This document shows, one piece after another, positions 2,620 to 58,574 of a DNA stretch of 64,000 nucleotides. The stretch covers positions 236,158,001 through 236,222,000 of the forward strand of contig OZ024741.1 of the NCBI GenBank assembly GCA_964016885.1, written 5' to 3'. Source of the DNA: Eledone cirrhosa (taxonomy: Eukaryota). The translations under genes were made by a program, and so were the position numbers. Below the pieces are notes generated by a model. The model was not told the origin of the DNA. It saw only the letters and a program-made list of their open reading frames with translations, and made no database searches. Position 1 is the stretch's first letter. The number at the start of each line of letters is the position of its first letter.

Positions 2620-2915
2620 AAGAGAGAGAGGGGGAGAGAAATGAGTATTGAAAGGTAAAAAAATATATGAACTGAACAACATTTTAGGGGAGAGAGAGGG
2701 AAAGAGAGAGAACACACCAACTCCTTGAGCAAGTCTTTCCACATGAAATGTATTGAAATGTCTCCACAGTTAATGTATCCATGTTAATATTGTGAATATT
2801 CCAGAAACAATGTTCTCTTAATAACAACAACAACAACAAAAGTAATTAAGACTAACAATAATAATAATAACATTTAACTAAAACATTTTCCCCTCATCTC
2901 ATCAAACTGTACGGA

Positions 2916-3632
2916 ATGGAGTCCTTACAACCTATGTATTCCTCATCTGGAACTGGTTTAGTGCCTCCTGGAAATAATCCCAACACAGGGCAAGATACTA
3001 ACAGCAGTGGTGGCCGTGGTGGTGGAGGAAATCGTGTGACCAATAGTAGTGGTGGCACCAATGTGGGTCGACAGGCGACCAGCATGGAGCACATGAGGAG
3101 CAATGACGTCTTCTACCGCGACAACTTATTGAAGGGACCACATCCTCCCACTGGACATACTCACCATGCTCACAGCCACGCTCATGGCCATGGGCACAGT
3201 GGTCATCATGATCACCACGCTCATGGTCACGCTCGACATACTAACTGTAGTAGCAGCGGGGCTGGAGCTGGTGCCGGTAGTGGAGGCACTGGCAACCATC
3301 AACATCATCACCATCACCACCACCATCACCACGGCCATATTGGAGGCGTTAACCAGAACACACTTCATTCGGGAGGAGGTGGCGTTGCTAGCACCGGTGG
3401 CAAGGGCCTCGCCGTTGGTTTGAACAACACAAACATGAACACGAATGTTAACCCAGGCCTCAACGTAAACCTAGGACCGAGCCCGAATACTGCTGCAAAC
3501 ATGCAACCAGCTACAAGCATTGCAGGCAATGTAAACATAGCCCCTCCCCAGCAGCAGCAACAACAACAGCAGCAGCAGCAGCAACAGCAGCAACAGCAAC
3601 AACAGCAACAACAGCAGCAGCAGCAACAACAA

Positions 3633-3670
<38 letters not shown>

Positions 3671-4865
3671 ACAGCAGCAACAGCAACAAGCACCACACTC
3701 ACAGCCACCTTCGACAAGTTCCACAGCCACTACAATGAATATGAGTATGCCATCAGGCATGATAGTGAACGCCAGCATGGTCGGTATGAACATGAATGCC
3801 ATTCATACGATGCACACCATGCATGCGGCCATGAACATGATGATGATCAAACGTCACCCAACAGGCAGTGAGAAAGAAGAGAAGCAACACAAGTGTGACG
3901 TTTGCCGTAAAACTTTCACTCGACGGTCGGACCTGCTGAATCACCAGCATGCTGCTACGCTGAACGACGATGGCAAGCACTTCTATTGTTCGTTTTGCCG
4001 TAAAGCATTCCCTATCCGAGCTCGACTCAAGGACCATTTACGCACACACACCGGAGAGAAACCATTCCGATGTGTCTACTGTGAAAAGATGTTTGCACAC
4101 CAGACCAACCTAAAGTCTCATCTCCGCCTACATACAGGCGAAAAACCTTTCAAGTGCATCGTATGCAGTAAAGCTTTCTCGCACCAAACAAACCTGAAGA
4201 GCCACGAGCGCACTCACACGGGCTGCAAGCCGTACCACTGTGGATACTGTGGTAAAGCGTTTTCTCACCAGACAAACCTGAAGGACCATCAGCGGATCCA
4301 CACTGGTATCAAGCCCTACCGATGCAGTTATTGCGACAAGGCCTTCAGTCATCAGACGAATCTCAAAGACCACGAAAGGACACACACCGGCGTGAAACCC
4401 TTTCAGTGTACATACTGTGATAAAGCCTTCAGTCACCAGACAAATTTGAAGGACCACCAGAGGACTCACACGGGCGAGAAACCCTATAGTTGTTCCTACT
4501 GTCAGAATGCGTTCAGCCATCAGACTAACCTGCGAGATCACGAAAGAACACACACGGGTGTACGACCCTACCAGTGTCGCTTCTGTACAAAAGCATTTAG
4601 TCACCAAACGAACCTGAGAGATCATGAACGGACTCACACAGGTGAAAAACCTTATCAGTGCGCGTACTGCGAGAATGCGTTCAGCCATCAGACGAATCTG
4701 AAGTGTCACGAAAGGCTGCACACCGGTGAAGCTGCTAAGACATTCACGTGCACGGTTTGCAACAAAGGTTTTGCTCACCAGACTAATCTGAAGGTTCATG
4801 AACGCACTCACAACAGGGGGCCGTCAGCACAAGAGCAGAACAAGGCACCACCACCAAAAGGGTGA
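2916..4865 (+). CDS. C2H2 zinc-finger protein (ZNF-1), 649 aa; Gly/His-rich N-terminus, long polyQ, 10 canonical fingers plus 1 atypical lead finger
   Basis: ATG-to-TGA ORF. It has repeated CxxC-x12-HxxxH motifs with TGEKP-type linkers and a CAG/CAA tract at about 3549-3689. Confidence 0.96.
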
Positions 4866-4910
4866 ACAGTATATATACATACTAGTACGCATATGTATAT
4901 ATAAGAGAGA

Positions 4911-17210: not shown

Positions 17211-19259
17211 TTATTGTAAAAGGGTTTGAATATAGCGTACAGCTTCCTGGCTCTCACACTTTCTCTGTCCAACAGCATATGCTGTAGTAGCTGATGGGTT
17301 GGACCAACCAGAATTCCAGGCCGTAGTAACTGGGAAGTTGCGTTTCCAGTAGTTATTGTCAGGCCTCTGTGGAAGTTGATGCGGTGATGTTGAGTTCATT
17401 GATGCTGATGCTACGGTAGCAGGTTGCTGTCGTATAGAGGCATGCTGGGACATCATTTGATGGGAACAAGCTGCTGGAGACATTGAGGATGATGATGATG
17501 ACGACTTACGCATCCCTGCTTGATGCTGTGACATCATTTGACATGACGAAGATGGGGAAGACGATGGTGTAGATTGCTGTTGATGATGATGGTGATGTTG
17601 GGCCTGCTGCTGCTGTTGTTGTTGTTGTTGTTGCTGCTGCTGCTGCTGCTGTGGAGGTGGTTGAGGCTGTTGCTGTTGTTGTTGTTGTTGCTTCCTCGGC
17701 GGTGGTGGTGGTGGTGGTGGAGCTGCATGTTGTGTTGATGATGACTGCGTCATCTGATGGGAGCAAGAACTTGAAGTTAGGGTTCCTGAAGTTACAACAG
17801 TGGGGGAGGGTGATGTAGTTGAGTGTTGTTTTCTCATTGATGTCGAATGATGGGCTGAGGCTGTCGCAGATGAGGTTGATGCTGAACTAGAGCTGGCTGC
17901 CATTTGGTGGTGAGTAGTGTTACCCCCACTGGCCACCAGGGCCGGTGTCTGCTGCTTATTGGCATGGCTGTCCCCAGTCATTTGAGACTCTGATGGACTG
18001 CTGTTAGTGTGGTGGTTTTGATGCTGACTATGATTATGGACATGATGATGATGATTATGGCCCATAGAATGAGAAAATTCCTCCCCAGCATGAATATGAC
18101 TGTGTTGCTTCAGGTGGGTCTTCTGGGAGAATGTCTTCAAGCATACGGTACACTGGAAAGGTTTCTCCCCCGTGTGTGTTCGTTTGTGCTTGTTTAAATG
18201 GTCCTTCTGGGCAAAAGACTTATTACAAATCGGACACTGATGTGGTTTCTCACCACTGTGTGTGTGTTTGTGTGTGTTCAAGTGCGATTTCTGTGCAAAA
18301 CATTTCCCGCAAAGGTTGCATGTGAAAGGTTTCTCTCCAGTGTGTGTTCTTTGGTGATTCTCAAGACGATCTCTCTGTGGGAAGACTTTACTGCAAAACG
18401 GACATGGGAAGTGTTTGCCAGTTTCTGGAGCAAGTTGGTGCCGGAGTAGGTAGGCTTTCAAGGTGAAACCCTTGCGACACACATCACATTTAAAGGGTTT
18501 ATCTCGAGCTTCATTTCCTCTGTTAATTGTTGGGAATGCTTTAGAGTTAAAGTGACCACTGTTTTGGAACGATGTTACATTGCTTCCATGAAAATGACCA
18601 TGGTTGTGGTTGTGGTTATGGCCATGATTATGATTGTGGCTGTGGTTATGGTTGTGGCCATGGTTGTGGCCATGATTATGACTATGGTTGTGTGAGTGGT
18701 TGTGGCCGTGGTTGTGACCGTGGTTGTGGCTATGATTATGGAACTGTTTGCGAGGAACCATCATGGCAATGTTGCCAGAATGGTTGTGAAGGTTCTTGTG
18801 TTTCACACGGTTGGCTGGTTTAATACCTTGGTGAACCATCTTGTGTGTATTCAGGTGAGACTTCTGTGAGAATGACTTGGAGCAAATGTCACAGGTGAAA
18901 GGCTTCTCACCAGTGTGTGTCCTCTCATGTTTCTCTAGCCTGTCACGTTGTGGAAAGACTTTGCTGCAGAAGTTACAATTAAAATGTTTACCAGCCTCTG
19001 GCGCCAGCTGGTGCCGCTGTAGGTAGGCTTTCAGAGTGAAACCTTTACGACAGACATCACATTTGAATGGCTTGTCACGGGCTTCATTTCCTTTTGCTTT
19101 GAACATAATCGATCCATTGTTGTTGTTGTTGTGATGATGATGGTGGTGGTGATGATGGTGATGGTGGTGGCCATTCGGTGGTGAGTAAGACTGAGAGTGA
19201 TTGTGGCCACCACTTCCACAATTGTCAAAGCAATTATCATTTGACTGAACCGAATACAT
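17211..19259 (-). CDS. C2H2 zinc-finger protein (ZNF-2), 682 aa; 8 fingers in two modules (3+5), polyH, (HNHG/S)n, and a polyQ/P/S C-terminus
   Basis: ATG-to-TAA ORF with C2H2 motifs and TGEKPF linkers. The two finger modules start with near-identical sequence. Confidence 0.95.
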   Translation of the reverse strand: MYSVQSNDNCFDNCGSGGHNHSQSYSPPNGHHHHHHHHHHHHHNNNNNGSIMFKAKGNEARDKPFKCDVCRKGFTLKAYLQRHQLAPEAGKHFNCNFCSKVFPQRDRLEKHERTHTGEKPFTCDICSKSFSQKSHLNTHKMVHQGIKPANRVKHKNLHNHSGNIAMMVPRKQFHNHSHNHGHNHGHNHSHNHSHNHGHNHGHNHNHSHNHNHGHNHNHNHGHFHGSNVTSFQNSGHFNSKAFPTINRGNEARDKPFKCDVCRKGFTLKAYLLRHQLAPETGKHFPCPFCSKVFPQRDRLENHQRTHTGEKPFTCNLCGKCFAQKSHLNTHKHTHSGEKPHQCPICNKSFAQKDHLNKHKRTHTGEKPFQCTVCLKTFSQKTHLKQHSHIHAGEEFSHSMGHNHHHHVHNHSQHQNHHTNSSPSESQMTGDSHANKQQTPALVASGGNTTHHQMAASSSSASTSSATASAHHSTSMRKQHSTTSPSPTVVTSGTLTSSSCSHQMTQSSSTQHAAPPPPPPPPRKQQQQQQQQPQPPPQQQQQQQQQQQQQQQQAQHHHHHQQQSTPSSSPSSSCQMMSQHQAGMRKSSSSSSSMSPAACSHQMMSQHASIRQQPATVASASMNSTSPHQLPQRPDNNYWKRNFPVTTAWNSGWSNPSATTAYAVGQRKCESQEAVRYIQTLLQ

Positions 19260-19849
19260 TTTAGTATTGTCTTAATTCTTTCTAAAACTGAACTTCAGAG
19301 AAAATAGTAAATGAAAAAGATGAAGAAAAGTTACTGTTATCTTCTCATTGGCAAACAGTCTTCATTTAGTTTTGTGTTTTATATAGATGGGATCTTCCTT
19401 CTAACACAACACAATGAAATCATATTTTTGTTTATGTGTTTCTTCAAAAATAAATAAGTCCACTTTACGCAGTACTGGATAATATCTTAGTCATTTATCA
19501 TGGTTTCTAATTTCTTCACAGACACAACCACATATGGCATGATGGTACTTTACTCAGTTTGTATTTCATATACCCAACAAAATTACACAGAGAAGACGAA
19601 GAAGGAAATAAAACTAACTCTAAAAAGTATTCCAATATATGTAATGTATGTCTTGAGAAAATTTGTCCGTGTTCCTGACACTTTCTTATTCAATGGATGC
19701 ACAGAAATATTTCAAACATGGAGAAAAATAAATGTATTGAAAAGTGTTTTAAAATCTGTGAAAGTTCTGAATGAACTTATATACTCAGCTCCATGAATGT
19801 TCTAAAGAGAAGGGATCTGATTTCAAATGTTAATCACAGCAGCCAGGAC

Positions 19850-20610: not shown

Positions 20611-21661
20611 AGATCCTCTCAGGAAAATGGCCTTGCTCAGTATGTAGGAAAGGTGTAGGTAGGAACTCCATCCTCTGCTCCAAATGCAAACAATGGGTAC
20701 ACAAGAGATGTAGTGGGATCTCAGGAAGCTTAACTAAGAATGTAGGCTTCATATGTAGCAGCTGTGCTGGGACAGCAAGCAGCAAACAGCCAGAGGAAAC
20801 AAGTACCACCAATCTCTGGGACGGCTCTGTAGAAACAGTAGACAGCTTCTGCTACCTAGGTAACCGAATTAGCAGCGGAGATGGGTGTTCGGAAAGTACA
20901 ATAATTAGGGTAAGAACAGGATGGAAGAAGTTTCAGGGAGCTACTGCCACTGCTAGCTGCAAAAGGCTTTTCCCTCAAAATGAAAGGCAAACTGTATGAT
21001 GCGTGTATACGAACAGCAATGTTACATGGTAGTGAGACCTGGGCGTTGTCTGTAGAAGACTTGTGTAGATTAGAAAGAAACGATGCTTGCATGCTCTGAT
21101 GGATGTGTAATAGTAATATACGCGAATGGCAAAGCATAAACAAACTGAGAGAGAGACTGAGCATAAGAGGAATCAAATGCTGTGTGCAGGAGAGGAGGTT
21201 GCATTGGTATGGACATGTGATGCATATGAAGGATGACAGCAGCATAAAAAGGTGCAGCGCACTAGAAGTCGATGGCAGCCGCAGAGTGGGGAGACCCAAG
21301 AAGACCTGGGATGAGGTGATAAAAGCCGACCTTACCCAATTGCACCTCTCAAGGGCGATGACACACGATCATGACCTCTGGCCTCACACAGTAATACAGA
21401 AGACCCGACTTCCCACGGGAACAAGTCGAAGCTGAAGCATATAGGCAATATGACCCCACCCCTCACCGCAAAGTGGTCGTGGAGGCACCACGGCAAAAAA
21501 GCACCCAGCCCACACTGTAAATGCGGTTGGTGTTATGAAGGGCATCCAGTTGTAGAAATCAAGCCAAAATCAACACTGCCCACAACAGGACAGCCCGTCT
21601 AACCCATGCTAGCGTGGAAGAACGGACGTGAAACGGTGATGATGATGATGATGATGATGAT
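20611..21661 (+). mobile_element. 5'-truncated RTE (family A)
   Basis: Highly similar to the reverse complement of 30800-31915. The (GAT)n tail is at about 21636-21661. Confidence 0.92.
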
Positions 21662-27890: not shown

Positions 27891-27920
<30 letters not shown>

Positions 27921-28280: not shown

Positions 28281-30240
28281 GTTTCTTTATTAGCCACAGG
28301 GGCACAAAAGAAGGGGACAAATACAAAGGGGGAAGTTTACATACAATAAAAACGTGTAAAATACTATCCAAATGCAATTTAAAAATTAGTCGATTTTCCC
28401 CAATAGGGGGAAACATTACATATGGGTAACACATACCCCTGAAAAAATGTGCAACCCTCATCTCCAGGAGTACGAAGAATTTGTACCCCTTTCCTCTCTT
28501 CCGCTTTTTGCTCAACCTACAGGCTGATATAGAGAGAAGGCCCATTCACTCGGGCCATTCTCGCCACTTTCACCCACCTTTCATAAAACTTGCTGGGGTA
28601 CAGCACCTCTCTCTCCCTCCTGATTCTTCTTCCAAAGTGGTATTTGAAAAAAAGAATCAGTTGTTGGCCGGAGAGAAAAGTGTCTGACCTCAGCCCTTTT
28701 AACCTCGTCCACTATACAACCTCTTTCGCCATAGCTATCACACAGAGGAAAACCGCCTATCCTTCGTTTTTGAAGGAGGGTGGCGGTTTGATCATGACAA
28801 TAGACTCGGTGGTCAACCGGATTGGTCCCATCTGCGACAATAGTCGTTTTACATAGCCCCACAGGTCGGTAACGCCCGGGCAGTGGACGAATGCGTGCGC
28901 AACGGTTTCTTCGTCTCACACGCATCTCGGACAGATCTTTTTCGAAGGGTCCCTGTCCGGGTGCCCGTGTCTGTAGAGCTTGTCTCGAACTGGTAAAGAT
29001 CCTCGGTAGCACTGCCAGGCCAGGGACTTTTGGAAGTTGTACATCGATCCCGGGCGGAAGGTCCTACCGAACAGACTGGCCAGTTCGTTTTCCTCTACGC
29101 CTAGAGTTTCTCCGAGCGCGTCGTCGCATTTGCTGCGGACCAACCTTCTATAGAATGATGAAGTGGAGTCTCCACTGATCGCCGGGTCCGCCTGCCAGAC
29201 GGCTGTGAGTGCCTGAGCACATTCAATGTGCCAGTCGCCCATTTTCCTCGGTCTTTGCTTGACCCAGGACTGCAGCTTGGTCAGCGAGACGAGTCGTGGG
29301 AAGGCCCGCCTCACGAACGGGGCCCACACCGGTTGTCCGGTGAGGAATACGTAGAGATGCCGCAGCCTGAGCGTGTGTTTGCGCATCGTCGGCCACGGCA
29401 TACCCAGCCCTCCGTTGGAAGGGTGTTGGCAGCAGATGGATCTTCTCACCAAAGGAGCCTGCTTCTTCCAAAGGAATTGGAAGAGCACGCGTGAGCGTTT
29501 TGGCTGGACAAGGCACGACGGTCAAGCGGTAGTAGATGGCGGACGCTATAAAAGTGTTCGCCACCTCCACTCGACTTCTCAAGGATAGTTTGCACTCGGC
29601 CCACTTCTGGGTGAATGCAAACACCTTGGCCGTCACCTCGTTCCAGTTCTTCTCCACCTGGAGGTTCAGACCAAACCAGACTCCGAGCAACTTCACCGGT
29701 CCTTCCGTCCAACATCCGACGACGCCATCGGAAGGCATCTGTTTGCCTCTCCACGATCTGAGCTGCAAACCAATGGACTTGTCTCGGTTCAGCTTCGCTC
29801 GTGTGAAGCTTTTGTATTTCTTCAGTAAGGTGCCGACTTCCTCGATTTGCGAGGTGCTGGACACCATTATTGTCACGTCGTCGGCATAGGCCGACACCGC
29901 TTTCTGCAGTCCCGGTTCCAGGGGGATGCCCTGCAATATCTCCAATTTCTGCAGTAGTGGCTCGAGAGTCAGTACGTACAGAAGGGAGGAGAGAAGGCAT
30001 CCCTGTCGAATGGATCGCGTGATATGGAATGGCTCCGAGAGGTAGACGTTCACCTTGACCCTTGAGCAGATGTTGCTGCTGTGCATTGCAGCAATCCAGC
30101 CCCTGAACACGGGTCCGAAGCCTGCCGCCTCGAGCAACACATCCAGGTAACGATGGTCAACCCTATCGAAAGCCTTAGACTGATCCAAGTTGATCAGGGC
30201 CCCACCGAAGCCGGGTTTGCACCCTACACTCTCTACGATG
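28281..30240 (-). mobile_element. 5'-truncated L1/Tx1-like non-LTR retrotransposon (RT + C-terminal Cys/His motif), pseudogenised
   Basis: Motifs DQSKAFDRVDH, RQGCLLS, LEPLL and AYADDV. The C-terminus reads CPRCV*DEETVAHAFVHC. The 3' end is AATAAAGAAAC, the body is GC-rich and the flanks are TA-rich. Confidence 0.88.
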
Positions 30241-30457
30241 TATATATATATATATATAGATAGATATATAGATAGATTAAGAAGACTCCAAAGTCAGTGT
30301 TGCAGCATAGGTACAAACTTAATTGACATATTACAATTGTTTCGATATGGATCAGCTCAGGGTGCAATCAAGATGACAGGGCTCTACTCTATTTTAACAT
30401 CACATCTGATTTGCAAGTTTTAACATTACATCTGATATGCAAGTTTATATATATATA

Positions 30458-30781
30458 TCATCATCATCATCATCATTTTACGTCTGCTTTTCCCTGCTTG
30501 CAAGGGTGGGACAGGTCCTATTCAGCACAGCATCTCTCCACTTGTCACGGTCCTTCGTCATCTCCACCATAAGCTTCAGCGATCTGAGGTCTGCTCTCAC
30601 CACCTCCGCCCATGTTTTTCGTGGTCTTCCTCTACTACGTCTTCCTTCAACTGGCATTTCTTAGCACTTCTTTACCCATCGGTCATCCTCCATGTGCATC
30701 ACATGTCCATACCATCGCAGTCTTCTCTCCCGTACACTACAACTTATCCCTCTTAAACACAGTTTCTCTCTCAACACATCC
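30458..30781 (-). mobile_element. 5'-truncated RTE (family B) 3' end
   Basis: Close similarity to 27891-28220, with a (GAT)n tail next to (TA)n. Confidence 0.9.
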
Positions 30782-30797
30782 ATATATATATATATAT

Positions 30798-33700
30798 CAT
30801 CATCATCATCATCACCGTTTTACGTCCGTTCTTCCACGCTAGCATGGGTTAGACGGGTTGTCCTGCTGTGTGCAGTGTCTGGTCGGCTGACCATGCCTTG
30901 CTCATACAGGAACTGATCTGGCTTGATTTCTATAGCTGGATGCCCTTCCTAACACCAACCTCATTTACAGTGAGTGCTGGGTGCTTTTTCGTGGCGCCTA
31001 CACGTCCACTTTACAGTGTGGGCTGGGTTCTTTTTTGCCGTGGCACCTCCACGACCACCTTGCGGTGGGGGGTGTGGGGGCATATTGTTTATATGCTTCA
31101 GCATGTACCCATGGGAGGTCGGGTACTCTGTATTACTGCGTGACGCCAGAAGTCACGGTCGTGTGTCATTGACTTTGAGAGGTGTAATTGGGTAAGGTCG
31201 GCTTTTATCACCTCATCCCAGGTCATCTTGGGTCTCCCCACTCCGCGGTTTCCATCAACTTCTAGTGCTCTGCACCTTTTTATGCAGCTGTCATCCTTCA
31301 TACGCATCACATGTCCATACCAGCGCAACCGCCTCTCCTGCACACAGTATTTGATTCCTCTTATGCTCAGTCTCTCTCTCAATTCATTTATGCTTTGTCG
31401 TTCACGTATATTACTGTTACACATCCATCGGAGCATGCAGGCTTCGTTTCTCTCTAATCTACGTAAGTCTTCCACCTTCAGCGCCCAGGTCTCACTACCA
31501 TGCAACATCGCTGTTCGGATACACGCATCATACAGTCTGCCTTTCATTCTGAGGGAGAAGCCTTTTGCAGCTAGCAGTGAAGTAATTCCCTAAACTTCTT
31601 CCATCCCGTTCTTACCCTAGTTATTGTACTTTCTGAACACCCACCTCCGTTGCTAATTCGGTCACCTAGGTAGCAGAAGCTGTCTACTGTTTCTACAGGG
31701 CCCTCCCAGAGATTGGTGGTACTTGTTTCCTGTGGCTGTTTGCTGCTTGCTGTTTCAGCACAGCTGCTGCATGTGAATCCTACATTCTTAATTAAGCTTC
31801 CTGAGATCCCGCTACATCTCTTGTGTACCCATTGTTTGCATTTGGGGCAGAGAATGGAGTTCCTACCTACACCTTTCCTACATACTGAGCAAGGCCATTT
31901 CCCTGAGGGGATCTGGGTTCTGTTTTCTCGTCTACTTACAAGGACCTTAGTCTTTGTCATGTTGACTTTGAGACCCTTTCTTTCTAGTCCCTGCTTCCAG
32001 GTTTGGAATTTATTCTCTAGTTCTACCATAGATTCAGCTATGAGTGCGAGGTCATCAGCATACAGGAGTTCCCATGGGCATCCGGTCTTAAACTCCTCCG
32101 TTATTGCCTGCAGGACTATGATGAACAGGAGAGGGCTAAGAACAGAGCCCTGGTGGACCCCAACCTGTACGCTAAATTCCTCGCTATACTCATTGCTAAT
32201 CCTAACTTTGCTGACTGCTCCCCTATACATGGCTTGTACCGCTTTCACAAGCCATTCATCTACTCCTAGTTTTCTAAGAGCCCACCAGATTACAACACGT
32301 GGAACTCTGTCAAAGGCTTTCTCAAGGTCGACAAATGCCAAGTAGAGTGGCTTACTTTTAGCTAGGTACTTTTCCTGTAATTGCCTCACAAGGAAGAGGG
32401 CATCAGTGGTGCCTCTTCCTGGTACAAACCCAAATTGCATCTCGTCTATTTTCACCCGGTCCCTAATCAGCTGTGCTATAACTCTTTCTGTTACTTTCAT
32501 GACCTGGTCCATCAACTTTATACCTCTATAGTTTCCTCTATCTAGTGCATCGCCTTTACCTTTGTAGCAGTTGACAATGATGCTACTGCACCAATCTTTT
32601 GGTATGGCCCCTTCTAGTATTACCTGGTTAACGATACGTGTGGTTATACAGTTCCTGTATGAGCAAGGCATGGTCAGCCGACCAGACACTGCACACAGCA
32701 GGACAACCCGTCTAACCCATGCTAGCGTGGAAGAACGGACGTAAAACGGTGACCTACAGACCCAGATGCCTTCAGCATCTCGGCAGCTATACCCGATGGA
32801 CCGGTTGCCTTCCCCATATTCATATCTTTGATTGCCTTACTTACTACGCTGCTGCTGACTTGTACTGCTGGTCCCTCTATAGGGTCTACTTGGGGTAGGG
32901 TCTCTTCTTCCCATGCATTCTCCTCATTTAGTAATCTATCATAATGACTCTTCCATGTATCTTTCTTCTCAGCACTTGTGAGGGCAAGCTCACCTTTATC
33001 ATTCCGGATACACTTCTCTCCAATGACATCACAACTATTTCTGACACACTGCCTCGCAATCTTGAACACCTCCTGTTTCTGGTCCTCACGTTGTAAAACA
33101 TGCTTGAATTTTCTATCCTCTGCTTCCCTCCTAGCTAAGTATACTTGTCGCCTAGCTTCCCTCTTGGTCTCTATGTAATGTACCCTGCTCCCCCCGTTCT
33201 TCCATTCTTTCCATTCCTGTCTCTTGGCCTTAACTGCTTCATCTACCTTATTGTTCCACCACCAAGTCACTCTCCTCCTGCTTGAGGTCTTACTCCAGCC
33301 ACAGACCTCATCCGTCGCCTCTAGTAAATTATTTTTTAGGAACTCCCAGTTCTCTTCTACGTTAAATCTCTATCTGTTCTTCTTTACTGTCGTAGGCGTT
33401 GAGTAAAATATCTTTAAATCTGTTACTGGTTGAGGGGACTTTCAGCTTCCAGATCTTTCTTCTCCAGGTTGGCCTCTGTTTCCGGGTTCGTCTAGTTCTG
33501 ACCGTGAGGTCGCTGACAACTAAGCTATGTTGGGATGTACATTCCTCACTAGGGAAGGCTTTTGTGTTTACGACCGTCCATCTGTCACGTCCTCTGATGA
33601 GGATAAAATCTAACTGACTAGAGTGCTCCCCTGATCTATAGGTGATCAGGTGGTTGTCGGGTTTTTTAAAGTTTGTGTTACATATGGACATGTCATTGGC

Positions 33701-34256
33701 GTCGCAGAATTCTAGAAGTCTGAATCCTTCCTCATTCCTTGTGCCAACTCCATGGCCTCCATGTACTCTATTGAAGCCGTCGCAGTGTTTACCTACGTGT
33801 CCGTTAAAATCTCCTGCAATGATTAGGAAGTCCTTGTCGTCTGTTAGAGCAGTAGTGTGTATTAGGGACTCGTAAAACCTATCCTTAAGTTCGTCTGACA
33901 GCCCCGATTGGGGTGCGTAAGCTGATATTATTGTGGTAATTGTTTTATTCAGGACTAGTCTGAGTTTAATGATTCTTGCATTTACCCTGTACACTGAGAT
34001 TACTTTATCTACCCACTTGTCAGCTAGTAGTATACCTACACCACACATCCCATCGTCATTTCCCACCCAGAAAAATTTGTAGCACCGACTTTTTCCTACC
34101 AGGACTCTGGCAGACTCTCCTCGCCATCTAGTCTCTTGCACACAGCATACGTCAACTTCCTCTCGCTCTAGCATTTCTACGATTTCTCCTGCTCTTCCTT
34201 TCATTGAGCCTATATTGATGGTACCAACTCGGAGTTTTGGGCATTTGTCGACACTC

Positions 34257-34257
<1 letters not shown>
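30798..34257 (-). mobile_element. Near-complete RTE-clade non-LTR retrotransposon (family A; APE endonuclease + RT), disrupted
   Basis: APE motifs VQETRW, SAYAPQ, AGDFNGHVG, LDFIL and SQH. RT motifs FVDLEKAFD, QGSVLSP and LYADD, followed by RTE-type RLRWYGHV. The (GAT)n tail is at 30798-30813. Frameshifts lie near 33370 and 31570 and an insertion at 32649-32752. Both ends abut (TA)n. Confidence 0.95.
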
Positions 34258-34292
<35 letters not shown>

Positions 34293-34300
<8 letters not shown>

Positions 34301-35553
34301 ATACTTGGGGAGGGTCATATTTGTGTAATATTGCCAGAATTAATAACAGAACACACTCACTGTTTGGTTGGTTTTCGCTTCTCGCTGTCTTTTATATCGG
34401 TAATCTAACTTACTCGGTCCTCAATGTTGCCATTGACTGACCGACGGTCAAAAATAATACAGATACAATATAGACACAAACACATATATATAGTTTATCA
34501 TAAATCTTTCGTTGCACATCTGCAACATCGTCAGTGGTGTTATATTTTCCTCCTGTTGTGTTGTATGTCTACGCTATTTTTATTCATAAAATCCCTGATC
34601 AGCAAAACCTACCCTTTTAAGAAAACCCACTGTACCAATAGGAAATGTATCATATGTAAGGTGAACCCCGGATAAACTGTAAAACTAGAAACGTAGTATA
34701 TAGCATAAGATGTACAGAGGGTACTTGCAGAAACATGACAACAACATACATAGGTGAGACAGCTCGTAGCATAGGTGAAAGGATAGACCAACACTGGGGG
34801 GAACTAAAAGGACGAAAAAACAGGTCAGTTCTATACGAACATGCTAGACAACAACATGACGGTAACATAGACAACATGGAAATTAGAATAATATCTAAAC
34901 ATAGAAATGACCCAGCAGATAGGCAAATCAGAGAGGCCAGTGAAATAGAAATTAGAAGACCAAAGCTAAACAGAAAGAATGAATGGAATAACAACAACAC
35001 CCAAACAAACAACACTGACCTAAGAGAAGTATAAATAAGTAAATAAAATAAGATAAATAAATAAATAAATACATACACAAGCACAATAACAACAAGCACA
35101 TAAACACACACTAATCACCCATCACACAGCAAACATAACACTATACACACACGTAAACGCATGCGCAAAGAAGACGAAATAAAATAAATAAATATATAGA
35201 CAGACTGAATAAAAATGGCGTAGACATACAACACAACAGGAGGAAAATATAACACCACTGACGATGTTGCAGATGTGCAACGAAAGATTTATGATAAACT
35301 ATATATATGTGTTTGTGTCTATATTGTTTCTGTATTATTTTTGACCGTCGGTCAGTCAATGGCAATATCGAGGACCGAGTAAGTTAGATTACCGATATAA
35401 AAGACAGCGAGAAGCGAAAACCAACCAAACAGTGAGTGTGTTCCGTTATTAATTCTGGCAATATTACACAAATATGACCCTCCCCAAGTATAACAATATT
35501 TGTTTCGACACACGATTTCATATAAAAAACCTCGCAAAACTAATTCATCGCCG

Positions 35554-50164: not shown

Positions 50165-53100
50165 GTAGCTGTAAGCACTATACAACAGACTATAGTACAG
50201 TTGTGGTGACAGTAGTGTATAACACACTGTAGTACAGTTGTGATGGCAGTACAACACACTGTAGTACAGTTGTGATGACAATACTGTACAAGAGTCTGTG
50301 GTACAGTTGTGCTAACAGTACTATATAACAAACTGTAGTACAGTTGTGACAACAGTACTATACAACACACTGTGGTACAGTTGTGCTAACAGTACTATAT
50401 AACAAACTGTAGTACAGTTGTGACAACAGTACTATACAACACACTGTGGTACAGTTGTGCTAACAGTACTATATAACAAACTGTAGTACAGTTGTGACAA
50501 CAGTACTATACAACACACTGTGGTACAGTTGTGCTAACAGTACTATATAACAAACTGTAGTACAGTTGTGACAACAGTACTATACAACACACTGTGGTAC
50601 AGTTGTGCTAACAGTACTATATAACAAACTGTAGTACAGTTGTGACAACAGTACTATACAACACACTGTGGTACAGTTGTGCTAACAGTACTATATAACA
50701 AACTGTAGTAAAGTTGTGACAACAGTACTATACAACACACTGTGGTACAGTTGTGCTAACAGTACTATATAACAAACTGTAGTACAGTTGTGACAACAGT
50801 ACTATACAACACACTGTGGTACAGTTGTGCTAACAGTACTATATAACAAACTGTAGTACAGTTGTGACAACAGTACTATACAACACACTGTGGTACAGTT
50901 GTGCTAACAGTACTATATAACAAACTGTAGTACAGTTGTGACAACAGTACTATACAACACACTGTGGTACAGTTGTGCTAACAGTACTATATAACAAACT
51001 GTAGTACAGTTGTGACAACAGTACTATACAACACACTGTGGTACAGTTGTGCTAACAGTACTATATAACAAACTGTAGTACAGTTGTGACAACAGTACTA
51101 TACAACACACTGTGGTACAGTTGTGACAACAGTACTATATAACAAACTGTAGTACAGTTGTGACAACAGTACTATACAACACACTGTGGTACAGTTGTGC
51201 TAACAGTACTATATAACAAACTGTAGTACAGTTGTGACAACAGTACTATACAACACACTGTGGTACAGTTGTGCTAACAGTACTATATAACAAACTGTAG
51301 TACAGTTGTGACAACAGTACTATACAACACACTGTGGTACAGTTGTGCTAACAGTACTATATAACAAACTGTAGTACAGTTGTGACAACAGTACTATACA
51401 ACACACTGTGGTACAGTTGTGACAACAGTACTATATAACAAACTGTAGTACAGTTGTGACAACAGTACTATACAACACACTGTGGTACAGTTGTGCTAAC
51501 AGTACTATATAACAAACTGTAGTACAGTTGTGACAACAGTACTATACAACACACTGTGGTACAGTTGTGCTAACAGTACTATATAACAAACTGTAGTACA
51601 GTTGTGACAACAGTACTATACAACACACTGTGGTACAGTTGTGCTAACAGTACTATATAACAAACTGTAGTACAGTTGTGACAACAGTACTATACAACAC
51701 ACTGTGGTACAGTTGTGCTAACAGTACTATATAACAAACTGTAGTACAGTTGTGACAACAGTACTATACAACACACTGTGGTACAGTTGTGCTAACAGTA
51801 CTATATAACAAACTGTAGTACAGTTGTGACAACAGTACTATACAACACACTGTGGTACAGTTGTGCTAACAGTACTATATAACAAACTGTAGTACAGTTG
51901 TGACAACAGTACTATACAACACACTGTGGTACAGTTGTGCTAACAGTACTATATAACAAACTGTAGTACAGTTGTGACAACAGTACTATACAACACACTG
52001 TGGTACAGTTGTGCTAACAGTACTATATAACAAACTGTAGTACAGTTGTGACAACAGTACTATACAACACACTGTGGTACAGTTGTGCTAACAGTACTAT
52101 ATAACAAACTGTAGTACAGTTGTGACAACAGTACTATACAACACACTGTGGTACAGTTGTGCTAACAGTACTATATAACAAACTGTAGTACAGTTGTGAC
52201 AACAGTACTATACAACACACTGTGGTACAGTTGTGACAACAGTACTATATAACAAACTGTAGTACAGTTGTGACAACAGTACTATACAACACACTGTGGT
52301 ACAGTTGTGCTAACAGTACTATATAACAAACTGTAGTACAGTTGTGACAACAGTACTATACAACACACTGTGGTACAGTTGTGCTAACAGTACTATATAA
52401 CAAACTGTAGTACAGTTGTGACAACAGTACTATACAACACACTGTGGTACAGTTGTGCTAACAGTACTATATAACAAACTGTAGTACAGTTGTGACAACA
52501 GTACTATACAACACACTGTGGTACAGTTGTGACAACAGTACTATATAACAAACTGTAGTACAGTTGTGACAACAGTACTATACAACACACTGTGGTACAG
52601 TTGTGCTAACAGTACTATATAACAAACTGTAGTACAGTTGTGACAACAGTACTATACAACACACTGTGGTACAGTTGTGCTAACAGTACTATATAACAAA
52701 CTGTAGTACAGTTGTGACAACAGTACTATACAACACACTGTGGTACAGTTGTGCTAACAGTACTATATAACAAACTGTAGTACAGTTGTGACAACAGTAC
52801 TATACAACACACTGTGGTACAGTTGTGCTAACAGTACTATATAACAAACTGTAGTACAGTTGTGACAACAGTACTATACAACACACTGTGGTACAGTTGT
52901 GACAACAGTACTATATAACAAACTGTAGTACAGTTGTGACAACAGTACTATACAACACACTGTGGTACAGTTGTGCTAACAGTACTATATAACAAACTGT
53001 AGTACAGTTGTGACAACAGTACTATACAACAAACTGTAGTACAGTTGTGACGACAGTACTATATAACAAACTGTAGTACAGTTGTGACAACAGTACTATA

Positions 53101-53365
53101 CAACACACTGTGGTACAGTTGTGCTAACAGTACTATATAACAAACTGTAGTACAGTTGTGACAACAGTACTATACAACAAACTGTAGTACAGTTGTGACG
53201 ACAGTACTATATAACAAACTGTAGTACAGTTGTGACAACAGTACTATACAACACACTGTGGTACAGTTGTGCTAACAGTACTATACAACAAACTGTAGTA
53301 CAGTTGTGACGACAGTACTATACAACACACTGTAGTATACAATTGAGATGACAGTTCTACAACAC
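50165..53365. repeat. Tandem satellite: 37-bp monomers A and B alternating as a 74-bp unit, about 43 units
   Basis: A=AGTACTATATAACAAACTGTAGTACAGTTGTGACAAC; B=AGTACTATACAACACACTGTGGTACAGTTGTGCTAAC. The edges are degenerate. Confidence 0.97.
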
Positions 53366-54153: not shown

Positions 54154-56493
54154 TTACAGCTGCCACAGGTACGTGCTCATTGGTGGAAACTCTTCAATTG
54201 TTTTACTGTTGGAATTAACGGACACTTTGTGAGGTTTATTGCTTGGCTGGGTACCATTGTGGGTTTTCTTGTGTCTCTGCAGAGTGTCACCTCGAGTGAA
54301 CTGTTTAGGACACATGTCACAGTGATAAGCTTTTTCCCCACTGTGTGTTATCTTGTGCAGCCGCAGGTATTGTCTTTGAGCAAAAGACTTGAAGCATATC
54401 TCACACTGGTATGGTTTTTCGCCAGTGTGTGTCCGACAATGGATCTTCAGGGAATTTTTCTGAGCAAACTGCTTAAGGCAGAAGTCACATTGAAATGGTT
54501 TTTCTCCAGTGTGGGTTCTTTTATGCAATCGTAGGTAATGTTTGTGAGCAAAGTTCTTGAGACAAACATCACACTGAAATGGTTTCTCTCCTGTGTGTGT
54601 TCTCTTGTGTATCTGTAATGTGTTTCTCTGAGCAAACTGTTTGAAACAAACTTCACATTGGTACGGTTTCTCTCCGGTGTGAGACCTCTCGTGGACATGA
54701 AGATAGTGTCGCTGTGCAAACATCTTTAAACAAATGTCACACTGATACTGCCGCTTTGGAGCATGAGTGCGACGATGGACTCTCAGCTTGTCACTCTGAG
54801 CGAACCTTTTATCACAAATCTCACAATGGAATGGCTTTTCGCCTGTGTGAGTTCTGCGGTGAATTTGAAGGGTTGTTTTGCGAGCAAATTTCTGGATACA
54901 AAAATCACATTGGAATGGTTTCTCGCCAGTGTGAGTTCGTCTATGAATGATTAAGTAATGTTTCTGTGTAAACTTTTTCAAGCATATGTCACAGTGCATT
55001 AGTTTCTCACCGGTGTGCAGTCGTCGATGGATCTGAAGATAATATCTTTGGGCAAAGTGCTTCAGACAAAATTCACATTGGTGTCGTTTCTTCAAAATAT
55101 GTGTCTTTTGATGAATTTGAAGTTTTATTCGCTGTGAAAATCTTTCTTGACAAACTTCACATTGGAATGGCATCTCGCCAGTATGGGTGCGTCGGTGGAT
55201 CTGAAGTGTGTCCCTTCGAGCAAATTTTTGGATACAGAAGTCACACTGAAATGGTTTCTCTCCAGTGTGTGTTCTCTTATGAATTTCAAGATAATTCCTT
55301 GTACCAAAATACTTCATGCATACATCACATTGAAATAGCTTATCAGGTGTGAATTGTTTTTTGACCATTTGAGAATTTTCTTGCATAGGAACTTGGTAGC
55401 TGTTTCCAAGAACTTTGGGGGATTGGACAAGACCCTCCATATGATTTTTCTTATGTCTTTTCATAACATCCTTTCTTGAGAACTGCTTGTTACAGATGTC
55501 ACACTGAAATGGCTTTTCACCAGTGTGCTTCCTTCGGTGCATGTGCATCAAATATTCCTGAGCAAACTTCTTGCCGCAGTAATCGCAGAAGAGCTGCCTT
55601 AATACTTGGGGTTTGGTTTGGCTTGGCGACAATTTGTTCGGGCTATATTGTTTTTGAGACACTTCACCATGGAATGATTTATCAACACTAGATGTGGAGC
55701 TCTTCTGTGATGAACTCTCTTTAGATAACTGTCCACTCTCCAAGTTTGACTGCATTCTCTCAGTAGTTGGTAAGTAACATGGCTGAGAATATTGACTGCT
55801 GTACATATTGTTACCAGGGAACACTGTCTGACCAATGTAGGGTAGTCTCTGGCTATCTATAGTTGATTCATGTGAGAACTGGGTCCCAGGCAGGTCACTG
55901 TTGCTACTGTTGTCTGGTTTGTCAACTGGTGATGCTATTCTCTCTTTCTCCAAGTTATGTCTATGAGAAGAGATCTGTTTACTAGAGATGCTGTTGTGAA
56001 TATTTTTCTCAGGAACATGCGACATTCTTGGAGTCTCCTGGCAGCTTCCATGTGACATATGTTTACCTGAACTATGGGAAGATTTCTCAGCTACATGAAC
56101 AATCCTGTGTGTGTCATGGGAGTACTGCTTTCCAGAGTCACTGCTGCTATTATGGATAGATTTCTCACTGGGTTCTAACATTCTTTGTGAGCTGTGTGAA
56201 TGGGAAGAACTATGTCGATGATGAATGTGCTTTCCAGAGCTGTTGCTATGGTGATGACTGGATTTTTCTGCAATGGGTGTCATCCTTTGCTGTGAATGAG
56301 AGCTCTGTGAACTATGAATGGGAAATTGCTTGCCTCCCAATGGAGCCATCCTCTGAGTATCAATAGCATGTTCCTGGCCAAAATGCTTACCAGAGAAGTC
56401 ACTAAGAGCTGGCATCCTTGGTGTTGGAAGTCTGTGATGGAATGGCATGCCATACATTTCACTATAGATTGGAATCCCGGCAGACCTTTCCAT
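54154..56493 (-). CDS. C2H2 zinc-finger protein (ZNF-3), about 779 aa; 15 fingers and a Ser/His-rich repetitive N-terminus
   Basis: 15 CxxC-x12-HxxxH motifs were counted. The ORF-track start at 56517 is a TTG directly after an in-frame TAG, so the first ATG at 56493 (MERSAG...) is used. Confidence 0.95.
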   Translation of the reverse strand: MERSAGIPIYSEMYGMPFHHRLPTPRMPALSDFSGKHFGQEHAIDTQRMAPLGGKQFPIHSSQSSHSQQRMTPIAEKSSHHHSNSSGKHIHHRHSSSHSHSSQRMLEPSEKSIHNSSSDSGKQYSHDTHRIVHVAEKSSHSSGKHMSHGSCQETPRMSHVPEKNIHNSISSKQISSHRHNLEKERIASPVDKPDNSSNSDLPGTQFSHESTIDSQRLPYIGQTVFPGNNMYSSQYSQPCYLPTTERMQSNLESGQLSKESSSQKSSTSSVDKSFHGEVSQKQYSPNKLSPSQTKPQVLRQLFCDYCGKKFAQEYLMHMHRRKHTGEKPFQCDICNKQFSRKDVMKRHKKNHMEGLVQSPKVLGNSYQVPMQENSQMVKKQFTPDKLFQCDVCMKYFGTRNYLEIHKRTHTGEKPFQCDFCIQKFARRDTLQIHRRTHTGEMPFQCEVCQERFSQRIKLQIHQKTHILKKRHQCEFCLKHFAQRYYLQIHRRLHTGEKLMHCDICLKKFTQKHYLIIHRRTHTGEKPFQCDFCIQKFARKTTLQIHRRTHTGEKPFHCEICDKRFAQSDKLRVHRRTHAPKRQYQCDICLKMFAQRHYLHVHERSHTGEKPYQCEVCFKQFAQRNTLQIHKRTHTGEKPFQCDVCLKNFAHKHYLRLHKRTHTGEKPFQCDFCLKQFAQKNSLKIHCRTHTGEKPYQCEICFKSFAQRQYLRLHKITHSGEKAYHCDMCPKQFTRGDTLQRHKKTHNGTQPSNKPHKVSVNSNSKTIEEFPPMSTYLWQL

Positions 56494-56587
56494 GTTGATA
56501 ATGAAAGCATGAAACAACTAGAAGAACCTTAAAGAATGTTGCTTTAACTTGCTGATTGTCTTGTCACAAAACAGGTCACAGTACACT

Positions 56588-57718: not shown

Positions 57719-58153
57719 CTGAAGTTGTGTTACTGAGTGATAAGAGTGGGGTGGGGTATATCATCATCATCATCATATATATATAATATCTTCCCTTTGG
57801 TATTCATTGTTGTTGTTATCTATAGTAAATGGCATACATGTAAACATTTTCATTCATGGTGTTTCCCTCTAATATTGTAATTAAGACCACACTAACGAGA
57901 AGAATTTATTTCTCCCATTATTGAGTATATAGAGACTACTTCAAAGTTTTTTGACTTGTGTTGCCTAAGTGCAATTAGAACTCCAGTGTACTACTCTAGA
58001 TATATATATGTAAATGATGAAGTTGTGTTAGTGAGTGATGACAGCAGGGTATATATATGGTAGAGTGGACACTTTAGTTGTGTAAAAGACATGATAAAAT
58101 GAACAGTACACTCAGTAAAGTGCAGGAACATATGCAAGCAAAAGATAGCCACC

Positions 58154-58574
58154 AACCCATCTGAGAGATCAGTGGCTCTGATTAAGCAATGACTTGGTCT
58201 ATGACAACCCATCTGAGAGATCAGTGGCTCTGATTAAGCAATGACTTGGTCTATGACAACCCATCTGAGAGATCAGTGGCTCTGATTAAGCAATGACTTG
58301 GTCTATGACAACCCATCTGAGAGATCAGTGGCTCTGATTAAGCAATGACTTGGTCTATGACAACCCATCTGAGAGATCAGTGGCTCTGATTAAGCAATGA
58401 CTTGGTCTATGACAACCCATCTGAGAGATCAGTGGCTCTGATTAAGCAATGACTTGGTCTATGACAACCCATCTGAGAGATCAGTGGCTCTGATTAAGCA
58501 ATGACTTGGTCTATGACAACCCATCTGAGAGATCAGTGGCTCTGATTAAGCAATGACTTGGTCTATGACAACCC
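58154..58574. repeat. 52-bp minisatellite, 8 apparently identical copies
   Basis: Unit AACCCATCTGAGAGATCAGTGGCTCTGATTAAGCAATGACTTGGTCTATGAC. Confidence 0.95.

Follow-up and report, generated by a model that had tools for sequence, protein, structure and literature searches.

What might a protein read whose zinc fingers nearly all carry the same recognition helix? The question is raised by ZNF-1, a C2H2 zinc-finger gene lying in a stretch of 64,000 nucleotides from the genome of Eledone cirrhosa (the window, within which positions are given below). Nine consecutive fingers of this gene share the helix HQTNL. As argued here from sequence, ZNF-1 likely binds runs of CATCATCAT, which in the source genome are mostly the ends of a common jumping gene, and it may belong to a family of old proteins whose predicted targets are simple repeats.

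ZNF-1 carries nine fingers with one recognition helix

The open frame of ZNF-1 spans positions 2871-4865 (+) and, counted from its first Met at 2916, encodes 649 aa. ZNF-1 is present in a single copy in the 3.0-Gb genome, the next best match being 60-61% identical over the array. Its parts are:

2916..4865, + strand: ZNF-1 coding frame with 11 fingers, from the ORF and a domain search; further exons are possible up- or downstream
2916..3878, + strand: low-complexity N-terminal region (Gly/Ser/Asn, with a Met-rich stretch), from Pfam
3888..3980, + strand: finger 1, atypical, helix RRSDLLN, from alignment with the family; decodes to ACG
3981..4049, + strand: finger 2, helix IRARLKD; decodes to CGT
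4065..4811, + strand: fingers 3-11, nine HQTNL helices, the first at 4098-4118 and the last at 4776-4796

The N-terminal region contains a His10 tract (3303-3332) and a Gln47 tract (3549-3689), and within 2916..3878 no Pfam effector domain scored above the cutoff. Neither KRAB (PF01352) nor SCAN (PF02023) matched the open frame. Fingers 2-11 are classical Cx2Cx12Hx3H repeats with TGEKP-like linkers, and the ZNF-1 fingers carry the classic base-contact residues at -1, +3 and +6. In finger 1 the second His at the normal spacing is missing, a family-invariant His stands directly before finger 2, and the loop is 3 aa longer than in most relatives, these extra residues probably lying between the zinc ligands and not in a free linker. 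Finger 1 models as a finger (AlphaFold, fingers 1-3; mean pLDDT 88). At the other end, a possible splice donor coincides in part with the stop codon (4858-4866), so that one more exon is possible; the family C-terminal motif was found neither in the ZNF-1 frame nor downstream of it in the window.

All of fingers 3-11 (first Cys at 4071, 4155, 4239, 4323, 4407, 4491, 4575, 4659 and 4749) read F(S/A)HQTNL(K/R)xH, just as the sequence-only reading had reported. Its description of position +6 is equally exact: Asp occurs in five fingers and Ser, Cys or Val in the others (S, S, D, D, D, D, D, C, V in order).

The helix is kept by purifying selection

The nine helices are written in varied codons. 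All four codon strings quoted in the sequence-only reading are present in the array, and 350 of 622 same-residue codon pairs among the nine fingers differ (56%, with 54% expected at saturation). Inside the helix codons, too, synonymous sites are saturated. Compared between fingers, along the lines that had been proposed, pN is 0.002 in HQTNL and 0.475 at the hairpin positions.

The proposed comparison with an orthologue also found HQTNL kept, as far as it reached. In organism D (run X11) one contig spans 3700-4868 and shows 77 differences from ZNF-1, of which 62 are listed and form the basis of the comparison. Among the differences listed, 45 fall in the array and every one is synonymous, 11 of them in helix codons (a loose-end line is the source of 2 of the 45). 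Outside the array, three codons encode a different residue. Over the best-covered stretch, 4191-4669, dS is ~0.28 (24 of 27 differences listed), and pN would be at most 0.008 were all 3 remaining differences non-synonymous. The finger 1 helix is unchanged in this organism, as is finger 2 from -1 to +3. Hairpin residues of the array are also kept between species, which indicates that selection acts on the whole array. The saturated synonymous sites and the synonymous-only array differences in organism D thus show that the array is under purifying selection and that the helix is kept by it. Diversified or positively selected base-contact residues, the mark of arms-race ZNFs, are not found in ZNF-1.

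No orthologue was found in protein collections, where the matches were long ZNFs (best identity 53%) or generic ZNF clusters, a result that does not amount to absence. Runs X6, X18, X19, X12 and X17 yielded no long ZNF-1 contig despite 17-23% shared words, and organisms C, E, F and G are therefore not counted as orthologues.

ZNF-1 belongs to an old subfamily

Runs of fingers identical at -1, +2 and +3 are at most four long in all 268 of 268 database poly-ZNF matches (5,883 fingers), and both runs of four have hairpins 80-90% identical, which marks them as recent duplicates. ZNF-1 has a run of nine with a hairpin identity of 0.36. Its old paralogues in the source genome have runs of 8 (L041), 6 (L002 and L027), 5 (L050) and 4 (L021), and L042 is an old array with a near-uniform helix.

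We surveyed 50 genes of the same genome with at least five fingers; because they were picked for their likeness to ZNF-1, they are not a random sample, nor are they independent. Of these, 34 are old (synonymous divergence 0.43-0.66) and 16 young (0.05-0.20). Base contacts resemble one another more closely than hairpins do in 28 of the 34 old genes and in 0 of the 16 young genes; ZNF-1, with an inter-finger synonymous divergence of 0.55 and a likeness of 0.69 in the helix against 0.36 in the hairpins, fits the old class. The young class (L005, L009-L012, L014-L016, L018, L038, L053, L054, L057-L060) is the opposite of ZNF-1, combining near-identical scaffolds with diverse helices, the pattern that would be expected of arms-race ZNFs. 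A significant helix period (p <=0.01 vs shuffled order) was obtained for 7 old genes, in each case of four fingers; two young genes have helix periods of 1 and 5.

The atypical first finger, with its invariant His in front of finger 2, recurs in many old members, ZNF-1 included (alignment of 22 family modules, one young row dropped). Many of the old members also have in common an N-terminal peptide and, at the C-terminus, a Trp-rich motif, the latter not universally, as ZNF-1 and some other members are without it. Two further ZNF genes lie in the window:

17211..19271, - strand: ZNF-2, of the same old subfamily, with two atypical finger 1 modules and the Trp-rich C-terminal motif
54154..56517, - strand: ZNF-3, 15 old fingers, helix period not significant

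The Trp-rich motif of ZNF-2 (17214-17400, -) has no Pfam match and is a candidate effector peptide. ZNF-3 is flanked by a 37/74-bp satellite (~86 units; 50177-53364) and by a perfect 52-bp repeat of 8 units (58153-58574).

The recognition code leaves four candidate triplets

From the helix, the sequence-only reading had predicted an (nAn)n target such as (CAT)n, (CAA)n or (CAG)n. Asp at +6 is classically assigned to C. Among the modules in Table 1 of PMC7317221 (cited in part, here and below), Glu+6 reads C, Arg-1 reads G, Asp+3 mostly C and Asn+6 A, while Asn+3 reads A in all listed Asn+3 modules but one, which stems from a row of uncertain order. Two published His-1 modules bear directly on ZNF-1: HRTTLTN, with the same His-1/Thr+2 pair, reads AGT, hence T at His-1, and in HTGHLLE His-1 reads C (PMC7317221). 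As these specify a 3' T or C, (CAA)n and (CAG)n are unsupported, whereas (CAT)n is upheld as the best candidate by genome context. A CAT module, TSGNLTE, is listed in the same source and failed on CAT in a yeast assay (PMC3919609, in part). Recognition codes are context-dependent, Asp6 included (PMC4330361, in part), and of 236 human KZNFs, only 11 had a predicted motif that agreed with experiment (PMC10547256, in part).

Our scoring code is our own simplification, built from published modules and recall. When Asp+6 was allowed to read T, (TAT)n and (TAC)n scored 29 and (CAT)n 22. By itself, the code does not separate (CAT)n from (TAT)n, (TAC)n or (CAC)n; that the target is some triplet-periodic YAY repeat is, as a prediction, quite probable.

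ZNF-1 might thus read one of the other triplets, or accept (YAY)n permissively in compound microsatellites, and have nothing in particular to do with CAT-tailed LINEs. Besides the tie of (TAT)n and (TAC)n at the top of the simple code, abundance speaks for this: overlapping nine-unit matches in the genome number 301,809 for TAC and 239,138 for TAT against 81,983 for CAT, making the first two 3-4 times as abundant. Mixed TAC/CAC/TAT tracts are also common, and 4 of the 9 fingers have Ser, Cys or Val at +6. However, relatives predicted to read a 5' T use Ile or Leu at +6 (L050, L026), whereas ZNF-1 has Asp in five fingers, and the rival triplets hardly ever run on into CGT..ACG (counts below). 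We regard a target among the other triplets as unlikely, if worth serious consideration. What favours (CAT)n is genome context, namely that the CAT runs inspected are LINE tails, together with a match of fingers 2 and 1 to the junction beyond them. The suggestion that tracts within the gene serve autoregulation found no support: ZNF-1 contains no (CAT)4 run, and His tracts are common across the ZNF family.

CAT runs inspected in the genome are mostly LINE tails

(CAT)n had been described as a LINE tail, and CAT-tailed LINE ends are indeed present in the window:

30798..34339, - strand: broken RT-encoding LINE, candidate target class, with its CAT tail at 30798-30812
27891..27920, + strand: (CAT)10 tail of a truncated LINE copy, candidate site
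30459..30476, + strand: (CAT)6 tail of a truncated LINE copy, candidate site
21639..21659, - strand: (CAT)7 tail of a truncated LINE copy, candidate site

The long copy encodes an endonuclease, an RT and a C-terminal Cys/His finger, so that, as in RTE elements, endonuclease and RT are combined in a repeat-tailed non-LTR element. From its domain layout, which is like that of RTE-2_OV (PMC9115989, in part), we infer that the CAT-tailed LINE belongs to the RTE clade; the tail sequence was not found in 4 of 8 searched supplement files of that paper. The RT region of the long copy contains, in opposite orientation, a piece that matches the 3' end of the LINE itself (~32650-32836), and a second, different RT-encoding fragment occupies 29223-30293 (-).

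The same association is seen outside the window. The first 30 (CAT)9 matches listed on contig C1 represent 14 loci, all of which (14/14, by eye) enter one element end. In an arbitrary sample of 39 10-kb stretches (390 kb), runs of at least four CAT units enter this end in 21 of 27 cases by pattern and in 24 of 27 by eye. LINE ORF homology, mostly at ~50-65% and up to 96% identity, was detected at 12 of 31 ends other than that of the long copy, among them 3 of the 8 whose junction is plain CGT; the remaining CAT-tailed ends are short, or may be SINEs. The tail end is common to LINE subfamilies whose proteins are only ~50-60% identical, so that the target would change slowly, and purifying rather than arms-race evolution would follow.

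Fingers 1 and 2 may read the junction

In register, the LINE end consists of (CAT)n, then CGT (15/33, the commonest triplet at this place) or CAT (12/33), then TTA/TTT and ACG. Finger 2 decodes to CGT, in part through Arg+3 for G and Ile-1 for T, which we take to be their preferences, and finger 1 decodes to ACG, giving the order of the LINE end after its tail. Of 22 family modules, 2 give the first decoding and 2 the second, and ZNF-1 alone combines them. The genome contains 26,172 matches to (CAT)5-CGT and 14,016 to (CAT)5-CGT-nnn-ACG; for the rival triplets, the corresponding numbers are 0 for (TAY)5-CGT-nnn-ACG, 5 for (TAY)5 with a gap of 0-4 and 28 for (CAC)5 with a gap of 0-4. Fingers 10-11, with their relaxed +6, would land where tails often yield to (TA)n.

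A site that reaches into the LINE end through fingers 2 and 1, as (CAT)n-CGT-nnn-ACG, is nevertheless doubtful. The match is post hoc, having been found after the tails were viewed and with a gap chosen to fit, and it depends on the code. Finger 1 is atypical, and fingers 3-4 have Ser at +6 although the predicted register puts C opposite. The parallel prediction for the closest paralogue, L021, which has the same finger 2 type, was (AAT)4-CGT; it is not enriched (629 vs a control of 677), and this failure counts against the junction reading unless L021 too reads CAT. The idea that a longer linker skips the 3 bp is weakened by the probable position of the extra finger 1 residues.

Paralogues are predicted to read other simple repeats

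Scored with the same code, L003, L026, L032 and L043 all fit (TAAA)n best (order-shuffle p <=0.01, 100 shuffles), and L008 gave p 0.12 on this repeat. In L003, L023, L026 and L032 the non-A-reading residue moves from -1 to +3 to +6 over three successive fingers, a shift of one position per finger that a four-base repeat unit requires; L008 shows it in part. These five four-finger-period arrays, predicted to tile (TAAA)n, lie at:

C2:234.8M: L003
C2:329.9M: L023
C7:8.83M: L026
C2:330.3M: L032
C2:236.5M: L008

L006, L019, L043 and L048 have a four-finger period without the shifting pattern of a tetranucleotide, and their arrays include a finger with two Phe at +2/+3. Further members decode to the AAT, ACT, AAG, ACC and poly(A) classes, all of which occur in the 390 kb of arbitrary genome; other triplets or poly(A) are predicted for the old near-uniform paralogues L002, L004, L021, L027, L030, L041, L042, L050, L051 and L052, among them (AGT)n for L002 and L042, (TAA)n for L050, poly(A) for L041, (TGG)n for L027 and (AGA)n for L030. 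Because the default helix reads A-rich triplets and the genome is AT-rich, this match of the family to genome repeats is weak taken alone. For L002 and L042 we could recognise no junction with an element. (TAT)n and (AGT)n runs share flanks between loci (L100, L103, L114; L101, L127, L128), which suggests that they are tails of other interspersed elements.

It is a tentative proposal, and one we would not press, that the source genome has an old, conserved, KRAB-less subfamily whose helix periodicity tiles simple repeats, ZNF-1 itself reading the CAT tail plus the dominant LINE 3' end. Equally tentative is the finer scheme within it, in which a one-finger period would serve for triplets and poly(A) and a four-finger period for (TAAA)n, giving targets that a retroelement could hardly change.

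Alternatively, ZNF-1 could be an ordinary transcription factor that applies subsets of its fingers to short CAT/ATG promoter motifs, uniform helices providing avidity or register shifting. Human C2H2 proteins often use their fingers in modules and often contain conserved internal duplications (PMC13541613, in part), and a Gln-rich N-terminus and an array conserved in its entirety, hairpins too, would suit such a factor. On the other hand, internal duplicates usually diverge in specificity (same source, in part). Runs of more than four were also not found in the 268 database matches, and the significant periods of the old class, 7 of 7 being of four fingers, fit tetranucleotide tiling. We judge this explanation rather improbable.

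Some C2H2 fingers bind RNA or protein, and the LINE tail is where reverse transcription starts. On these grounds the ligand might be something other than B-DNA: LINE RNA tails, (AUG)n or (CAU)n, the RNA:DNA hybrid that arises in retrotransposition, or a repetitive protein. Against it stand the canonical TGEKP-type linkers and the classic contact positions of ZNF-1, as well as a fold search in which the model of fingers 1-3 resembled DNA-bound fingers, if in a generic way only (TM ~0.58). Such a ligand seems very unlikely.

Gene conversion within the array

One tract in the array bears on homogenisation:

4665..4700, + strand: conversion-like tract in finger 10, in organism B identical to finger 8 (4497-4532)

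Organism B (run X5) differs from ZNF-1 at 6 of 474 bases, and its 36-nt identity between fingers 10 and 8 (simulated chance 0.0002) implies 4 changes, one of which turns a hairpin Glu into Gln. The tract looks like gene conversion, an assembly effect being the other possibility. In the source genome the array has a shared run of 22 nt. That recurrent short conversion keeps the helix mechanically, with no functional meaning, is largely refuted and scarcely credible despite this tract, since conversion cannot spare the synonymous sites, which are saturated in the helix codons, and the 22-nt run is within chance (P = 0.12). Selection therefore dominates the array, with conversion now and then; the earlier claim of selection instead of recent homogenisation stands in its first part, while the tract in organism B tells against the second.

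Discussion

The uniform array of ZNF-1 is real, selected and unusual. We put at about an even chance the explanation that ZNF-1 is an old single-copy C2H2 protein predicted to bind double-stranded (CAT)n, mostly in LINE 3' tails. An old internal duplication would have given rise to the nine-finger array, which would stay uniform as every finger faces the same triplet. Asn+3 is predicted to contact the middle A, His-1 the 3' T and Asp+6 the 5' C. The array would wrap the (CAT)n duplex, one finger per triplet, and would thereby mark LINE tails; the putative effect of bound ZNF-1 is silencing, nucleosome protection, or activation via its Gln/His-rich N-terminus.

With one helix, four candidate triplets and one junction, ZNF-1 offers a simple and cheap test. 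If the explanation is true, a defined ZNF would be tied to tens of thousands of LINE tails, and transposon recognition would be under purifying selection instead of in an arms race. The subfamily would provide repeat-binding arrays from nature, and recognition codes could be trained on it. A LINE class like the CAT-tailed element is reported to be active in octopus brain (PMC9115989, in part).

Microsatellite-binding C2H2 proteins and conserved internal duplications are already known (PMC2694838, PMC7083622 and PMC13541613, each in part). Our literature search, which mostly did not cover subscription papers, found no description of ZNF-1 or of a cephalopod periodic-helix family; the supplements or Dryad files of PMC12513265 may contain these genes. 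Like the cephalopod C2H2 expansions, ZNF-1 sits among clustered C2H2 genes in a large, AT-microsatellite-rich genome (PMC12513265, PMC9068888, both in part). In the part of PMC12513265 at hand, the binding sites of the expanded genes are posed as an open question and helix periodicity is unanalysed.

Closest in target is ZNF191/ZNF24, a natural C2H2 protein that binds a TCAT microsatellite (PMC2694838, in part), hence one containing CAT, the target of ZNF-1 being predicted only. It differs in belonging to the SCAN family and in its tetranucleotide target, whereas ZNF-1 has nine identical helices and no SCAN in frame. Zscan4 is likewise a C2H2 microsatellite reader, binding (CA)n, and genome protection is its model function; it is a mammalian SCAN protein with a dinucleotide target, and the part of PMC7083622 cited here does not report it within a family of many repeat classes. 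KRAB-ZNFs and other TE-targeting ZNFs, octopus included, are clustered poly-finger genes with predicted transposon targets, and octopus ZNFs are predicted in bulk, in general terms, to match transposons and simple repeats (PMC10547256, in part). Such transposon-chasing ZNFs have variable base contacts, whereas ZNF-1 is KRAB-less, with uniform helices under purifying selection. Finally, the engineered GGAA-targeted ZFA1 has a four-finger helix period, as do several of the paralogues (PMC9374162, one supplement row); the GGAA-targeted arrays are synthetic, while ZNF-1 is natural and has a period of one.
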